From positions 32,001 to 96,000 of the forward strand of contig CAZPQW010000001.1 in NCBI GenBank assembly GCA_964588985.1: DNA of 64,000 bases, given 5' to 3'. Position 1 is the stretch's first letter; every line of letters begins with the position of its first letter. A program made the position numbers and the translations under genes. Shown piece after piece: positions 44,787 to 47,898 of this stretch. Under the pieces are notes generated by a model. That model was given only the letters and a program-made list of their open reading frames with translations, was not told the origin of the DNA and did not search any database. Origin of the DNA: an uncultured Solirubrobacteraceae bacterium (lineage in GTDB: Bacteria; Actinomycetota; Thermoleophilia; Solirubrobacterales; Solirubrobacteraceae).

Positions 44787-44851
44787 ATGCTACGCCCCAA
44801 GGTTGATGGGGTCGTCGATCCAACGTCATCTGGCCTCTATGCATTGGGGTC

Positions 44852-44940
44852 AAATCGCTCCTCGTGAAGCCTCCGGATCAGAGGCCACGGAGATTTCGAG
44901 AGTCTTCCCGCCATCCCCGTGTTTGTTTGAAGTTCGAACT
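44852..44940. repeat. att-like repeat R2 (type A left arm; symmetric attP-like site)
   Basis: Matches R4/R5 with 7 substitutions over the first 63 bp; TCGA motifs at 44896 and 44934 are symmetric about the CCCC tract at 44915-44918. Confidence 0.9.
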
Positions 44941-44961
44941 GCGTGAAGCCAAGCGTTCGAG

Positions 44962-45414
44962 TCAGCCGGGGACGTCTACGGCGATGTTAGTGCGGCGAGT
45001 CAGGCCGACAAGCAGGTTGATGTCGTCTGGATCGCCGGTGACGATGGTCACCGCGCAGATCCGGCTGCGTTCCTCGGCCATCGCCACGACCTGTGCATCG
45101 GTCGGCGAAATGTCGTGGCGCGAGAGCGAAAGTGCCTCAGTCCGCAGTACGCCCGCGCGGGTAGCGGCCTCGACGGTCAGTGGCGCGTAGATGTCGTCCT
45201 CTGCGCCGATGGCCTTGATCAGGCGATCGACGAGTGCATCGGAGCGTCGTTGGCCGGATCGCACCTCGGTAAGCACGGGGATCGGGATCAGGAGCGCTCC
45301 ATCGATGCGCAGTTTGAGCACTTCGATATACGCAACGAGCAGGTCCCGGTTCGCGGCCAGCGCGCTGACGCCGCCACTGTCGAGCAGGAAGTCGCGGCGA
45401 GGCCGGTTGATCAC
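44962..45414 (-). CDS. PIN-domain (VapC-like) toxin
   Basis: FLLDSG, VLTEV, TDAQVV, VTGDPDDI acidic residues. Confidence 0.85.
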   Translation of the reverse strand: MINRPRRDFLLDSGGVSALAANRDLLVAYIEVLKLRIDGALLIPIPVLTEVRSGQRRSDALVDRLIKAIGAEDDIYAPLTVEAATRAGVLRTEALSLSRHDISPTDAQVVAMAEERSRICAVTIVTGDPDDINLLVGLTRRTNIAVDVPG

Positions 45415-45659
45415 TCAGGCCAAGTGTCCGCGCGGCGCTGGAGCTCGGGCAGGTGCTTCGAGCCGTCGGCCCCCTCGGCGACGAGTTCGTCGCGCAACTG
45501 CTGGAGGCGAGCACGCTGGGCGTCACGGAGCTTCGGATCGTCCGCAGGCTGCGGCCCGACGTGCATTGCGATGGCGGCCTCCATTGCATTCATTGTATCC
45601 AGAGTCTCGGCAGTCGGATCGGCGTTCTTGACTGACGCACAAGGCTGGCAGGCGGTCAC
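45411..45659 (-). CDS. Putative antitoxin partner of the PIN toxin
   Basis: Small ORF overlapping the PIN start by 4 nt; RLQQLRDELVAE...TWPE; start uncertain. Confidence 0.55.
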   Translation of the reverse strand: MTACQPCASVKNADPTAETLDTMNAMEAAIAMHVGPQPADDPKLRDAQRARLQQLRDELVAEGADGSKHLPELQRRADTWPE

Positions 45660-45767
45660 GGAGCAGTGAGTTGGAGGTCTGCTTGACGGATCGCGGCGAC
45701 CGCTTGACGTCGCGCCGCCCGCCCGGCGGGCTTCATCAACTCCTCAAGTAGCCGATCCAGGGCGGCC

Positions 45768-45833
45768 TCTCGGTTTGCAACGCGTCCCGAACTCCCCCCG
45801 TTTTCCGCCGGTACGAGGTCGTTGTTCGAACTT
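45768..45833. repeat. att-like repeat R3 (type B left arm)
   Basis: 30 bp identical to R1, C6 tract, then GTTTTCCGCCGGTACGAGGTCGTTGTTCGAACT. Confidence 0.9.
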
Positions 45834-45874
45834 CGTCCCGCTGAGATGTCTCAAGCGTCGATCATGCTTAGCGG

Positions 45875-46174
45875 GTGCCCGACGCCGTCAATCAGTTGCT
45901 CGCTACGGAGGCCGCCCTGAACAAGCTCGGGGCTCGGGGGATCTCTGTCGCAGAGGCAGAGCAGACGATCTGGAACCGCCATGTGGTCGTCAGGAACCGG
46001 CGGGGTAGCCCGGAGCGGCGTCAGTCCGATGTGCGCAGGCTCGTAGTCGGCCAAAGCGATGCGAACCGAGTCCTGACGCTCGTGATCGAGGAGACGATCG
46101 AGCCGACGACATGGCTGCTCGTGACGGGGTGGGATTCCACGCCTGCCGAGCCTAAGATCTTGGAGAGATCATGA
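45875..46174 (+). CDS. BrnT-like toxin
   Basis: KLGARGISVAEAEQ...RRLVVGQSDANRVLTLV...LVTGWDSTPAE. Confidence 0.7.
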   Translation: MPDAVNQLLATEAALNKLGARGISVAEAEQTIWNRHVVVRNRRGSPERRQSDVRRLVVGQSDANRVLTLVIEETIEPTTWLLVTGWDSTPAEPKILERS

Positions 46175-46404
46175 TGCCCTCTCACCCAGATCCACTGCCG
46201 GGGGACTTCGACGAGGAGCTCGGCAGCCTGGACCCCGCTGACGTACAGGTGGTCGAGTCTTCTCACGGGCGTCATCTGAGCGTGCAGTTCACGCTCGAGG
46301 GAGACGACGCAGCGGCGCTGCAACGGATCGCTGACGACCAAGGCGAGAAGCCCGGCGAGGTCGTCAGGTCTCTGATCCGAGCAGCTTCAGCCAAAGCGGC
46401 CTGA
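46171..46404 (+). CDS. BrnA/CopG-like antitoxin
   Basis: Acidic N-terminus, C-terminal RHH-like SVQFTLEGDDAAALQRIADDQGEKPGEVVRSLI; 4-nt overlap with the toxin. Confidence 0.7.
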   Translation: MMPSHPDPLPGDFDEELGSLDPADVQVVESSHGRHLSVQFTLEGDDAAALQRIADDQGEKPGEVVRSLIRAASAKAA

Positions 46405-46546
46405 CCGCCCGCCGCAGCGGGTCCCTGAGCGTCATTAGAGGACTCATGGCTGCCGTTAGGTCGATGGGCGGGGAACCATTCGCGGTGGGGCATCCTGCGG
46501 AGTTGACCATTAGGGCGCTGAACGGCTATCGGCGGAGTTCCTAGGA

Positions 46547-46753
46547 CTAAAGTCCCAGTTCGGGAGTTTTTTTTGAGATGGCGACTGTGCTACAGACGAG
46601 CAGTGCCGCAATGACCACTACGAGCCCGTGGAGAGACTGATGAGCAAGACAGTCGACAGCGACGAGTGGGACGATCACGACCAGCCGGAGCGCGACATAC
46701 GCAAGGATCGCGTCGAGTGCTGCCTCACCTCTCTTCTCAAGCCATCGTCGCAT
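46547..46753 (-). CDS. Small membrane protein
   Basis: Two hydrophobic segments in 68 aa. Confidence 0.4.
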   Translation of the reverse strand: MRRWLEKRGEAALDAILAYVALRLVVIVPLVAVDCLAHQSLHGLVVVIAALLVCSTVAISKKTPELGL

Positions 46754-46836
46754 GTGTTGATTGTCGTATGGCCCTAGGACGGAACCGGGTCTCGGCAAGC
46801 AGGTCGAGAGCGAACAGCCTCGGCTAGCAGGAGTCA

Positions 46837-46937
46837 AAATCGCTCCTCATGTAGTCGTCGAATCAGGGGCCACGGAGATTTCGAGAGTCTTCCCGCCATC
46901 CCCCGTTTTTAGCTGGTGCGAGGTCGTCGTTCGAACT
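46837..46937. repeat. att-like repeat R4 (type A left arm, R1/R3-type right arm)
   Basis: 46837-46906 identical to 47829-47898, followed by TTTTAGCTGGTGCGAGGTCGTCGTTCGAACT. Confidence 0.92.
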
Positions 46938-46991
46938 CGCTCATTTTGCTAGTGCTCGAGCTGGCGAACAGCCCGACGATGGGGCGTGGTC

Positions 46992-47438
46992 CTACGCTGG
47001 CTGGTCCTGATCGGGCTCAAGTTGGTCAGGATTTGGCGGCGGGCCTGCGGTCTCTATCTCGGCTTCGGTCCACGCTCTGAGTTGTTCAACCAAGGCGAGT
47101 GCCGCAGATCGGTCCAGGGCTGGCGGTTCCTCGCCCTCGTAGCGGAACTCGACTGCCCAAGGCGACAGCACGTCGGCCTCGGAAAGCTCGTCCGGTGCCT
47201 CAATGTCGTTTTCCTCGACCAGGCCGATGAGGTAGCTCAGCGCGTGGCTCTTCACGAACGTCACCCCGCGAGCGGCCAGTACGGCCTTGATCAGCTTCTC
47301 GGCGGCCTGCTGTGCGTGAAAGCCGATGATCGCGTCGGCCACGTCGGTGTCCGGGCAGACCTTCTGCACGAGCGTCTCGTCATCGACGGCCCTGGCGAGC
47401 AGCACCCGCGCCAGGTCAAGCCGGTCATGCGGCGGCAT
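46992..47438 (-). CDS. HEPN domain protein
   Basis: IGFHAQQAAEKLIKAVL, KSHAL, AVEFRY. Confidence 0.9.
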   Translation of the reverse strand: MPPHDRLDLARVLLARAVDDETLVQKVCPDTDVADAIIGFHAQQAAEKLIKAVLAARGVTFVKSHALSYLIGLVEENDIEAPDELSEADVLSPWAVEFRYEGEEPPALDRSAALALVEQLRAWTEAEIETAGPPPNPDQLEPDQDQPA

Positions 47439-47745
47439 GGAGCACTCGACCTTCGGTCAACGCGGCGTGGACCATCGTTCCCTTCACGGCCCCCCAGTCC
47501 TCCGCGTAGCGCTCGCTGACGACGACTACATCGAACGGCCTTCCGAGCGGGCGAAGCGCGCGACCGAGACGCACCATCTCGGCATGGCGGTCGCGAGGGT
47601 CGCGCTCTACGACCAGGAAATCGAAATCGCTGTCCGGGCCGGCGTCACCGCGCGCCTGCGAGCCAAACAACACGATCTTGACCGGATCGTCAGCGATAGC
47701 CGCAAGCGTCTGCCCTGCAGCCTCGATGATCTCCTGGGCAACCAT
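47425..47745 (-). CDS. Minimal nucleotidyltransferase (MNT) antitoxin
   Basis: IVLFGSQARGDAGPDSDFDFLV. Confidence 0.92.
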   Translation of the reverse strand: MVAQEIIEAAGQTLAAIADDPVKIVLFGSQARGDAGPDSDFDFLVVERDPRDRHAEMVRLGRALRPLGRPFDVVVVSERYAEDWGAVKGTMVHAALTEGRVLHAAA

Positions 47746-47828
47746 GGCGACACCGTAGCGAAGCCCGCGGATCAGGGCACAGAACGGTAGTCGTCCAGTT
47801 GCGGCAGACGATCTTTGGCGCCCGCCCC

Positions 47829-47898
47829 AAATCGCTCCTCATGTAGTCGTCGAATCAGGGGCCACGGAGATTTCGAGAGTCTTCCCGCCATCCCCCGT
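47829..47898. repeat. att-like repeat R5 (type A left arm; probable terminal attR)
   Basis: 70 bp identical to R4; sequence right of the C-tract lacks the GTTCGAAC arm. Confidence 0.92.

Follow-up and report, generated by a model that had tools for sequence, protein, structure and literature searches.

The window analysed here, a stretch of 64,000 nucleotides, carries an island that starts at the 3' end of a tRNA-Ser(gct) gene (Table 1). From this tRNA outward, it consists of the remnant of a large serine recombinase (LSR) gene and five repeats (R1 to R5, hereafter arms), which we read as stranded recombinase tails and four of which bound small cassettes. The 3' end of tRNA-Ser(gct) points to the island and that of the neighboring tRNA-Ser(tga) points away from it. 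The LSR remnant abuts tRNA-Ser(gct), reads toward and into the antisense tRNA, is devoid of the catalytic N-terminal part and contains at least one frame break. Using tblastn, we matched it to the LSR of locus L166 (38.7% identity over 150 aa, E 3.5e-20), to the LSR tail of L174 (56% over 103 aa, E 4.8e-32, window positions 38314-38027) and to a further LSR (49% identity, E 4.6e-42, one stop). Besides this remnant, the window contains no intact LSR. R5 adjoins the chromosomal flank (47898-47949) with no common arm in between and therefore represents an attR-like end of the island.

Table 1. Features of the tRNA-anchored island in the window.
Feature	Coordinates	Strand	Basis and remarks
tRNA-Ser(tga)	37866..37958	-	ARAGORN; Rfam tRNA 58.5 bits; neighbor of the predicted target tRNA
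tRNA-Ser(gct)	38027..38118	+	ARAGORN; Rfam 61.1 bits; predicted integration target (B half-site)
LSR remnant, last ~150-170 codons	38119..38542	-	tblastn
Cargo of tRNA-proximal element	38543..43429		Pfam and composition; GC lower, 0.55-0.62
734-aa methyltransferase-domain protein	39050-41254	+	Pfam; cargo of tRNA-proximal element
GDSL lipase	42026-42706	-	Pfam; cargo of tRNA-proximal element
Small HARE-HTH-like protein	43133-43357	-	Pfam; cargo of tRNA-proximal element
R1, type B arm	43415..43544	-	Profile match 70.7 bits; putative P half-site and tail codons ..GSSGRVANRDDAVDRLSAELLEPTGKEARRRAADAIRNVVCS, then stop
Common arm (putative P' half-site), cassette 1	43545..43577	-	Aligns in frame to VFRGLRSY.DK
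Cassette 1: 252-aa nucleotidyltransferase-like protein and 125-aa partner	43658..44786	-	Weak Pfam DUF294
R2, type A arm and C-tract	44837..44919	-	MAGRLSKSPWPLIRRLHEERFDPNA, then stop
Common arm of cassette 2, shortened	44920..44942	-	~11 nt shorter than the others
Cassette 2: PIN-like protein (44962-45414) and small upstream partner (45411-45659)	44962..45659	-	
R3, type B arm and C-tract	45656..45799	-	GSSGRVANREAALDRLLEELMKPAGRAARRQAVAAIRQADLQLTAP, then stop; profile match 74.1 bits
Common arm of cassette 3	45800..45833	-	
Cassette 3: BrnT-like protein (45875-46174) and small partner (46171-46404)	45875..46404	+	
R4, type A arm and C-tract	46834..46905	-	MAGRLSKSPWPLIRRLHEERF, then stop
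Common arm of cassette 4	46906..46938	-	
Cassette 4: HEPN (46992-47438) and nucleotidyltransferase (47425-47745)	46992..47745	-	Pfam
R5, outermost type A arm	47772..47897	-	..GMAGRLSKSPWPLIRRLHEERFGAGAKDRLPQLDDYRSVP, then stop

The cassette units measure 0.6-1.4 kb and are mostly toxin-antitoxin-like. Pfam scores are clear for cassette 4 (HEPN 54 bits, NTP_transf_2 43 bits) and fall under the cut-off for the PIN protein of cassette 2 (19.2 bits) and, weakly, BrnT_toxin of cassette 3 (15.8 bits); Phd/YefM, ParE, MazF, and MazE domains are clear in related arrays. The same cassettes recur in other genomes at 81-91% identity, with borders at the C-tract and next to two tRNA-Ser isoacceptor genes. 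The block of cassette 1 (43532/43543-44923/44925) is also present in L080 and L078 (82-86% identity), that of cassette 2 in L085 and L078 (86-88%), and that of cassette 4 in L123, L079, and L077. The cassette 3 block (45794-46408) was detected at at least 12 loci (81-91%) and directly adjoins tRNA-Ser(gct) in L083 and tRNA-Ser(cga) in L087.

On the minus strand, all three type A arms yield MAGRLSKSPWPLIRRLHEERF on conceptual translation (ORFs 44852-44914, 46837-46899, and 47829-47891). R4 and R5 are identical over these 63 nt, whereas R2 differs from them at seven positions (offsets 32, 38, 41, 42, 44, 47, and 50), six of them third codon positions and one the first position of an AGG/CGA arginine pair. 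The changes alter no amino acid in the peptide frame and 2 to 6 amino acids in the other five frames. An earlier note, made from the window alone, had described an invariant 21-residue peptide with synonymous changes only, and these counts bear it out. The same note let the arm start at the C-tract, a tract that is not constant in length, and let similarity end after the Phe codon, which proved one codon short of the usual extent in the wider family (RFG).

To look at this pattern in related genomes, we analyzed 95 distinct type A copies for codon-position diversity and 89 in-register copies for dN/dS. Mean nucleotide diversity at codon positions 1, 2, and 3 was 0.148, 0.178, and 0.297, respectively. 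Codons 12-23 showed a pS of 0.607, a pN of 0.129, and a dN/dS of 0.11, compared to a dN/dS of about 1.8 in the two other frames. The distal half of the type A arm that is under this constraint reads PLIRRLHEERFG. Together with the R2 pattern, these values support the proposal of the earlier note that the arm is under protein-coding selection; across the additional copies, non-synonymous changes in codons 12-23 stayed well below the neutral rate. In codons 2-11, pS was as low as 0.133 with a dN/dS of 0.94, and the proximal half is therefore conserved as DNA.

All junctions share the core ..CGG/GG.., and 50 of them contain a strict common arm, which is in frame and open with the following arm at 33 (22/36 for type A, 7/9 for type B, 4/5 for type C; chance expectation one third); the remaining 17 are out of frame. 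In the window, an in-frame TAA precedes R4 by three codons. In its putative frame, the common arm matches the LSR motif VFRGLRSY.DK. An alternative frame gives SSNNDLV, resembling the phylum-wide LSR motif SSNKxxLV. Judging by the VFRGLRSY.DK match, the common arm is probably what remains of the last LSR codons ahead of the crossover.

LSR reading frames that run into type B or type A tails were found in one related genome and in metagenome contigs. The L166 LSR, a 487-aa fragment ended by the contig end, comes from a genome of the same genus (Recombinase 57 bits; Zn_ribbon_recom 23.5 bits, under the 25.3-bit cut-off) and continues in frame into a type B arm (..RSYKDKM/AGRSGRPANPNLDRLLEHLMESVGRQARREAAEAIRR.., then stop). 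The LSR of G572 is full-length, with 595 aa and Resolvase (86.3 bits), Recombinase (52.4 bits), and Zn_ribbon_recom (25.8 bits) domains, all above cut-off. Up to ..NKM/A, it shares 84-89% identity with the L166 LSR, and past this point its sequence is antisense tRNA-Ser(gct), AERAGFEPAMEF. Upstream of this gene, the same strand carries four B-like arms. LSRs that are 84-89% identical to the L166 protein read into antisense tRNA-Ser when they adjoin the tRNA.

Type A tails directly follow LSR coding sequence in frame at L274, L252, L250, and L091. The L274 gene comprises about 620 codons with 56.6% identity to residues 1-563 of the G572 LSR and ends with ..GRGSYIEQMAGMAGKFSKSPWPLIRKLHEERFG.., behind which lie a Phd/ParE-like cassette, a common arm, and tRNA-Ser(gct). 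L252 retains the C-terminal 276 LSR residues and L250 and L091 short LSR remnants. None of the type A-tailed frames is intact, since L274 has one in-frame stop and the others are truncated. The earlier note had also considered that the arm might be the C-terminal tail of a recombinase, connected to it in the attP state alone; the LSR frames running into type B (L166) and type A tails (L274, L252, and L091) support that idea. For its other suggestion, the N-terminus of a directionality factor or the head of an HTH protein, we found no support. We did not see a circular or excised form. Contigs of four metagenome runs broke at the repeats and contained no joints in the array.

Arrays are anchored at tRNA genes. 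A tRNA-Ser with its 3' end toward the array was present at 17 of the 25 array loci scanned, and the common arm opens the flank in 12 of 20 tRNA-Ser flanks examined. Among 30 LSR loci of the genus, 22 have an LSR reading into the antisense strand of a tRNA called by ARAGORN (Ser, Asp, Lys, or Leu). In global alignments to antisense tRNA-Ser(gct), the consensus of each of the A, B, and C arms shows one 5-nt gap, between ..CGGGA and TTCGAA. The accessible text of PMC3783163 describes a zinc-ribbon-domain motif that is shifted by 5 bp between attP and attB in LSR sites. The outer motif of the arm lies ~5 bp farther from the center than in the B half-site, in agreement with the rule as given in that text. 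The cognate enzyme expected for such att sites, with Resolvase, Recombinase, and zinc-ribbon domains, is represented by the G572 LSR. Likeness to the tRNA end would account for the junction sequence.

The arms are LSR tail codons, and the type A repeat is very probably the P arm of an attP located inside the 3' end of an LSR gene together with the native tail codons, which were stranded upon insertion into tRNA-Ser; repeated insertions and their derivatives would have produced the array. The first ~30 nt of the arm, from the C/G-tract to ..TCGAAATCTCC, are the predicted recombinase-binding half-site, which appears to be a copy of the tRNA-Ser 3' end in antisense, enlarged by 5 bases. The rest of the arm (PLIRRLHEERFG and a few codons) would be the native C-terminal tail of the recombinase. 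Recombination between a circular element and the tRNA-Ser 3' end would place the LSR body beside the tRNA, reading on into the antisense tRNA, and leave the gene's own tail codons at the opposite end of the element. We assign R1 to the tRNA-proximal element as its stranded tail. Small derivatives that have lost the recombinase would keep the last ~12 LSR codons, i.e., the common arm, and one arm, and together with repeated insertions they could pile up into a co-oriented array of toxin-antitoxin-like cassettes. Because we found no recombinase gene within the arrays, we can only infer that cassettes moved in trans; they may also have travelled with LSR elements recombining at a distal arm. The constraint at the protein level is presumably kept because an arm becomes the LSR tail whenever it is joined to one. 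The wobble pattern of stranded tails could reflect inheritance from active elements rather than upkeep in place.

The other role considered in the earlier note is that of a leader peptide aiding translation of cassette genes, by analogy with the integron ORF-11. In this reading, the arm would be a short independent gene or uORF whose peptide, started at the ATG, promotes or couples translation of downstream cassette genes as ORF-11 does in class 1 integrons. Several features fit such a peptide: the arms lie on the strand of most cassette genes in the window, the R4 stop overlaps the TTG of a downstream ORF, and 54 of 96 type A copies have a stop no more than 8 codons past RFG (the other two frames do so in 43 of 192 cases). 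The ATG, which the earlier note saw at the start of each type A arm, is kept in 67 of the 96 copies and missing in 29, and type B and C arms show codons such as AGT, CCG, and CTA in its place. In several copies, MAGR and the constrained part are in different frames, and the G-tract directly adjoins the ATG, leaving no space for a ribosome-binding site. Cassette genes also occur on the strand opposite to the arms, both in the window (45875-46404, cassette 3) and in L040 (VapBC-like genes, 7424-8842). The arms thus have neither a conserved start codon nor a fixed orientation to a regulated gene, as would be expected of a leader peptide or uORF. Since the same codons end LSR reading frames, where the ATG appears as ..KM/AG.. 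or ..KTGMAG.., we consider a leader peptide highly improbable. The ATG is very probably an internal Met codon of the recombinase, and its TGG the antisense of a CCA-like end. Nearly as improbable, if slightly less so, is a separate role for stranded tails translated alone, e.g., as small recombinase-binding or directionality peptides. The strong purifying selection on 12 codons, seen across about 90 copies of which the majority do not adjoin an LSR, would suit this idea, as would the ATG in two thirds of copies and the frequent early stops. The lack of start codons in B and C arms speaks against it, and frame continuity with the LSR remnant (33/50) points to selection as part of an LSR frame.

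Chromosomal integrons are characterized by IntI, attI, and attC sites with inverted-repeat cores, and class 1 integrons have the ORF-11 leader. The island resembles them in its small, co-oriented cassettes rich in toxin-antitoxin pairs, in its conserved junction repeats, and in the cassettes shared between arrays. The junction repeats could accordingly be attC-like sites of a tyrosine-integrase array with an incidental open frame. However, in the 5 genomes inspected, no array had a Phage_integrase-domain gene in its vicinity, the closest such gene of the window lies at a distance of about 38 kb, and a tblastn search with the genome's own recombinases revealed one integrase among >100 array loci. 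We found no IntI-type tyrosine integrase with attI adjacent to the arrays, and inverted-repeat cores of the attC kind appear to be lacking; arrays are anchored at a tRNA gene, and the enzyme family is that of serine recombinases. Arms reproduce the end of the tRNA with a 5-nt offset, as is typical of LSR sites, and are physically joined to LSR remnants and frames, and a dN/dS of 0.11 is unexpected for a site conserved for structure only. An integron-type origin therefore appears extremely improbable.

The LSR elements described here can be compared to several known systems. They share Resolvase, Recombinase, and zinc-ribbon domains with the LSRs of the A118/LI, phiC31, and Bxb1 attP/attB systems, as well as short sites of two half-sites in which P equals B apart from a 5-bp outward shift of the outer motif (accessible text of PMC3783163). 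The difference is that attP lies in the recombinase's own 3' coding region, and integration therefore replaces the last 20-45 codons. A term search of the main text of a large LSR survey (PMC10083194) returned no mention of tRNA, and phage and plasmid records held no close relatives of these LSRs (at most 33% identity over longer matches). [quoted passage not shown] The island shares the att position, tRNA-gene integration, and border fragments. Unlike the tyrosine recombinases of that review text, which are split into two inactive halves, the bacterial serine recombinase keeps the catalytic and DNA-binding body complete and exchanges the tail alone, which sets it apart from the SSV-type class. 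In open full-text papers, we found no published description of an own-gene attP arrangement for serine recombinases or for bacteria.

As far as the accessible text of PMC8092301 covers it, integration-dependent immunity systems of mycobacteriophages (BPs type; Mycobacterium abscessus prophages) also have attP within a gene, resulting in different C-termini in the free and integrated forms, and attB in some cases overlaps the 3' end of a tRNA gene whose transcription runs toward the truncated gene. There, the altered gene encodes a repressor and a tyrosine integrase acts, whereas here the altered gene is that of the recombinase itself. Cis-mobilizable elements likewise accrete in tandem at tRNA genes. 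In tycheposons, according to the part available to us of bioRxiv 10.1101/2020.12.28.424599, older elements are displaced from the tRNA by newcomers, and the island becomes filled with degenerate elements, fragments of integrases, and repeated att remnants. Tandem accretion, degenerate elements, and repeated att remnants are common to both, but the repeats described here are recombinase tail codons copying the tRNA end rather than partial tRNAs, and the units are very small and mostly toxin-antitoxin-like.

With attP in the gene's own 3' end and a tRNA 3' end as target, the tail of the recombinase would be tRNA-encoded in the integrated state and a different one in the free state. This swap may alter its activity or direction. 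One possible, though rather doubtful, generalization is that a widespread actinobacterial LSR clade uses the tail swap as a sensor of its integration state that sets activity or direction, comparable to the role proposed for the complete gene of archaeal suicidal integrases. Stranded tails might then serve as interchangeable tail exons by which an LSR element gains neighboring toxin-antitoxin cassettes, forming a tRNA-anchored, serine-recombinase counterpart of the integron. If the swap does control activity or direction, it would constitute a new and very compact route to one-way recombination, of relevance to serine integrases as genome-engineering tools. The analysis indicates that a non-genic repeat with synonymous-only changes represents the terminal codons of a recombinase gene, separated from its body, that the attachment site of an LSR clade targeting tRNA 3' ends lies inside its own gene, and that a bacterial recombinase changes its own tail on integration. 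The arrays also show small toxin-antitoxin cassettes building up beside tRNA genes in abundant, uncultured soil bacteria. The LSR clade was detected in 165 of 251 genomes of the genus (E <= 1e-10), and relatives of it in 22 of 300 other Actinomycetota genomes. In these other Actinomycetota, the LSR reads into an antisense tRNA at 18 of 28 loci, or at 17 of 26 when two loci from unpublished genomes are left aside.

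Three stretches on the minus strand of the window encode the same peptide, MAGRLSKSPWPLIRRLHEERF, each within a type A arm of the junction repeats R1 to R5. R4 and R5 are identical in sequence and R2 differs from both at 7 of 63 nucleotides; six of the differences fall on third codon positions and the seventh within an AGG/CGA arginine pair. These changes alter no amino acid in the peptide frame and 2-6 in each of the other five frames. The observation in the earlier note that the copies differ only synonymously was thus borne out, and it lies far beyond chance. Among 95 distinct type A copies, the codon signal is clear yet restricted to the distal half of the arm: codons 12-23 (PLIRRLHEERFG) gave pS 0.607, pN 0.129 and dN/dS 0.11, with values of ~1.8 in the other two frames. 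Codons 2-11 show scarcely any changes (pS 0.133, dN/dS 0.94), and this proximal half is constrained as DNA. The pattern is similar in type B arms (distal dN/dS 0.43) and in a third arm type, C (GLTGRLSKHDPVWERIRKLHAQRF..), found within the same arrays (0.19). On the plus strand, every repeat except R5 is followed by a C-tract and a common arm of ~33 nt (TTTTnnGCnGGTnnGAGGTnGTnGTTCGAACT).

Coordinates of features, in the window unless a locus is named
Feature	Position	Strand	Remark
R1, R3		minus	junction repeats, type B arms
R2, R4, R5		minus	junction repeats, type A arms
MAGRLSKSPWPLIRRLHEERF-encoding stretches	44852-44914, 46837-46899, 47829-47891	minus	type A
Phage_integrase-domain match	4998-5501	plus	68.8 bits
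Tandem paralogous genes	25200-37450		five genes
tRNA-Ser(gct)	38027-38118		LSR remnant directly behind
Methyltransferase-domain protein	39050-41254	plus	734 aa
BrnT-like cassette	45794-46408		
Extra sequence before R4	46405-46833		~430 nt
AGTTCGGGAG then eight T	about 46556-46574		in extra sequence
96-codon ORF	46547-46837	minus	in extra sequence
Repeat-containing ORF	54239-56583	minus	
~141-nt units	54977-56357		eight to ten copies
Locus with common-arm-like sequence	G000:C1:294274-294400		after tRNA-Ser(gga)
L004	G000:C24:11070-14120		diverged type A arm
L065, tandem units	1600-2100	minus	~117 nt, three copies
L141, junction with tRNA-like 3' end	6690-6760	plus	before type A arm
L131, junction with tRNA-like 3' end	4080-4150	minus	before type A arm

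The arms consist of C-terminal tail codons of a large serine recombinase (LSR) and a tRNA-like half-site. At L166, a type B arm has an unusually long open frame which is the end of an LSR (..PLYAQLIPLARQLAQ..SPVFRGLRSYKDKM/AGRSGRPANPNLDRLLEHLMESVGRQARREAAEAIRR.., then a stop); in Pfam it scored 57 bits for Recombinase and 23.5 bits for Zn_ribbon_recom, the latter under the cut-off of 25.3 bits. In genome G572, an LSR of 595 aa exceeds the Pfam cut-off for each of the Resolvase, Recombinase, and zinc-ribbon domains; it is 84-89% identical to the L166 LSR and matches as far as ..NKM/A, beyond which it enters antisense tRNA-Ser(gct). On the strand of this LSR, B-like arms are present at four places 1.5-6.5 kb upstream. 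Since one frame ends in a B arm and the other enters an antisense tRNA, the recombinase gene carries attP within its 3' end. For type A, an LSR 3' remnant at L091, a locus of the same genus (..PRRPQPRFRGCGLKTTQM), continues in frame into AGMAGKSSKSPWPLIRRLHEERFGQISH and a stop. A 19-letter junction pattern retrieved 69 metagenome stretches, of which 66 are of an unrelated MAGMAG type and L250, L252, and L274 are relevant. The LSR in L274 spans about 620 codons, is interrupted by a single in-frame stop near codon 100, and shares 56.6% identity with the G572 LSR across residues 1-563; its frame goes on ..GRGSYIEQMAGMAGKFSKSPWPLIRKLHEERFG.. and behind it follow a Phd/ParE-like cassette, the common arm, and tRNA-Ser(gct). 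L252 retains the C-terminal 276 LSR residues and L250 a short LSR remnant, each followed by the A tail.

The earlier note had offered two readings of the type A peptide, a leader peptide or a recombinase tail that is joined only in the attP state. Because LSR frames run into A tails, the putative start codon, kept as ATG in 67 of 96 copies, is an internal Met of the LSR frame and the leader-peptide reading fails; the in-frame continuations into the B tail (L166) and the A tail (L091, L274, L252, and L250) show that the recombinase-tail reading is right. We had also considered a possible likeness of the peptide to the N-terminus of nucleotidyltransferase antitoxins, an idea that was dropped. 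The type B arm had at first been compared with the tail of a tyrosine integrase on contig C37 (a 31-aa match at 32%, with E 0.007 from a search of 14 sequences), and this lead was abandoned once B and A tails had turned up at the ends of LSR frames. As a test of an integron reading, searches for Phage_integrase and Resolvase domains in five genomes detected no tyrosine or serine recombinase gene in or adjoining the arrays, and tblastn with the genome's own recombinases against more than 100 array loci returned just one integrase, in L150. The array resembles an integron only superficially. The Phage_integrase-domain match in the window is about 38 kb from the array and unlinked to it.

tRNA-Ser genes anchor the arrays: of the 25 array loci scanned, 17 have one (isoacceptors gct, tga, cga, or gga), its 3' end pointing towards the array, and the arms are encoded on the other strand. 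In 12 of 20 tRNA-Ser flanks, the tRNA end ..CTCCG is directly followed by TTTT and the common arm, which is the order found after the arm C-tracts inside arrays. The window displays the layout of tRNA, LSR, cargo, and stranded arm: an LSR remnant comprising the last ~150-170 codons (..GLKPKQM/AERAGFEPAMEF..) is present directly behind tRNA-Ser(gct) on the opposite strand, followed by ~5 kb of cargo and R1. Among the products of the tRNA-proximal element is a protein of 734 aa whose RMKL-like methyltransferase domain scored 41.4 bits; this protein may be a fused restriction-modification enzyme. Elsewhere in the genome, a common-arm-like sequence follows tRNA-Ser(gga) on contig C1 with no arm within the next 6 kb, and this locus may be an empty or decayed site.

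The window cassettes are small gene pairs of toxin-antitoxin appearance, with clear Pfam matches to HEPN and nucleotidyltransferase and weak PIN-like and BrnT-like ones, and GC content at 38.5-48 kb is below that of the surroundings. The same cassettes recur in other genomes with 81-91% identity and with the same borders, at the C-tract; the BrnT-like cassette adjoins tRNA-Ser(gct) in L083 and tRNA-Ser(cga) in L087. In the window, ~430 extra nucleotides, missing from this cassette elsewhere, separate it from R4 and hold AGTTCGGGAG followed by eight T as well as a 96-codon ORF. An Rfam search of positions 37000-50000 found nothing beyond the two tRNAs.

Within the window's genome, arm copies occur in this island and at a single locus on contig C24 (L004), nowhere else. 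L004 comprises a Phd/YefM and RelE/ParE-like cassette together with the common arm and a type A arm that has diverged and whose frame is broken by a 2-nt length difference; a transposase-like gene adjoins on the other strand. A six-frame search of 401 genomes with a 24-residue peptide listed 150 matches at E <= 1.4e-3, and by hand count among the matches listed the best E was <= 1e-5 in 77 of the 401 genomes. In genomes of the same genus, peptide matches often form co-oriented arrays with a spacing of 0.7-2.5 kb. At the DNA level, matches among 401 genomes of the family were confined to this genus, with hits in 4 genomes and in 1 of the 51 genera covered. An exact 30-letter pattern occurs in 62 stretches of a species-level genome collection, 61 titled uncultured Solirubrobacteraceae/Solirubrobacterales and one just 'uncultured Actinomycetota'. 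Type B arms have a match in 138 of the 251 genomes searched, with a threshold of E <= 0.01. One or more unpublished genomes (out of G440, G546, G773, G881, and G1013) enter the tallies 289/401 and 77/401 of the 24-residue search, 138/251, 165/251, and 23/301; L208 and L213 come from two of them and no claim depends on these loci alone. At L065, a ~117-nt unit (..GASGQAANPGSYIDHLAPERPDTKSSDFPGKTTKIRPMA) occurs in three tandem copies directly upstream of the type B arm, as though the whole junction had undergone triplication. At L141 and L131, a sense-strand tRNA-like 3' end (..GGTTCGCATCCCGCCCGCCG) precedes the type A arm in place of the common arm, which suggests an inverted or head-to-head junction.

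In the free form the recombinase gene most probably ends with the arm; upon integration at the tRNA it ends with tRNA-derived codons, and the arm is left behind at the opposite end of the element. Arrays would grow by repeated insertion at the tRNA, a process that a preprint describes for other tRNA islands (bioRxiv 10.1101/2020.12.28.424599). Cassettes devoid of a recombinase may be moved in trans, or be carried along when an LSR element excises using a distal arm. In L274, the LSR is joined to the arm of the neighbouring cassette, and rejoining of this kind would keep arms selected as tails. That a tail swap also changes recombinase activity or direction is a rather doubtful extension. The stretch is contained in 24 DNA metagenome runs, with no RNA run listed among the holders; contigs from four metagenome runs over 37900-48200 break at the repeats and contain no joint within the array, and neither an excised form nor a transcript was seen.

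When the consensus of each arm type (A, B, and C) is aligned with the 3' end of tRNA-Ser(gct), read antisense, one 5-nt gap results, between ..CGGGA and TTCGAA. For an A118-type integrase, half-sites of about 25 bp are described, with the zinc-ribbon-domain motif of attB lying 5 bp nearer the centre than that of attP (PMC3783163). Ordinary LSR att systems, one of the closest parallels, share both the enzyme architecture and the half-site rule with the system described here. Being the P half-site, the initial ~30 nt of the arm show conservation that extends to third codon positions. The common arm is the P' half-site and a leftover of the last LSR codons, although its frame is ambiguous between two candidates. 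BLAST pairs VRTTTSYRPK-TG.. with VFRGLRSYKDKMAG.., whereas the alternative frame, SSNNDLV, resembles SSNKxxLV, a motif before the tRNA in distant relatives. Of the 50 junctions having a strict common arm, 33 have the VRTTTSY frame running on into the arm without a stop, against an expectation of one third.

Of 251 genomes of the genus, 165 have a match to LSRs of this type at a threshold of E <= 1e-10. Among the best 30 genus LSR loci, the frame enters an antisense tRNA (Ser, Asp, Lys, or Leu) in 22 and has its native tail in one. Relatives with 31-41% identity were found in 22 of 300 other Actinomycetota genomes (23/301 with unpublished genomes), in 21 of 199 genera including the window's own. 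Among 28 of their loci, 18 have a frame that extends over an antisense tRNA (Met, Ala, Val, Pro, Arg, Ile, Leu, His, or Glu); setting aside the two loci of unpublished genomes leaves 17 of 26. Phage and plasmid collections contained no close LSR relative. In L174-L198 and L205-L232, the LSR frame stays open through about 30-45 antisense-tRNA codons of many unrelated tRNA species, with recurring tRNA-encoded tails such as ..AERAGFEPA.., ..VRRAGLEPAPPD.., and ..GATGLEPATS...

The archaeal SSV-type 'suicidal' tyrosine integrases are a close parallel in that their att site also lies in their own gene; a review calls them exclusive to archaea (PMC8371274). Another close parallel is mycobacteriophage integration-dependent immunity, where attP is inside the repressor gene and the C-terminus changes upon integration (PMC8092301). 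Searches of the open full-text literature turned up no serine recombinase described as carrying attP within its own 3' end or as targeting tRNA ends, and the term 'tRNA' is absent from the main text of an LSR survey (PMC10083194).

Two further repeat regions are present in the window. Five tandem paralogous genes of roughly 600-1000 codons account for repeat families D1-D14 (60-87% identity), and this cluster also flanks the tRNA-Ser island in L038, L039, L075, L083, L086, and L089. A single long ORF contains the ~141-nt unit, in a layout that resembles a beta-propeller-type repeat protein.
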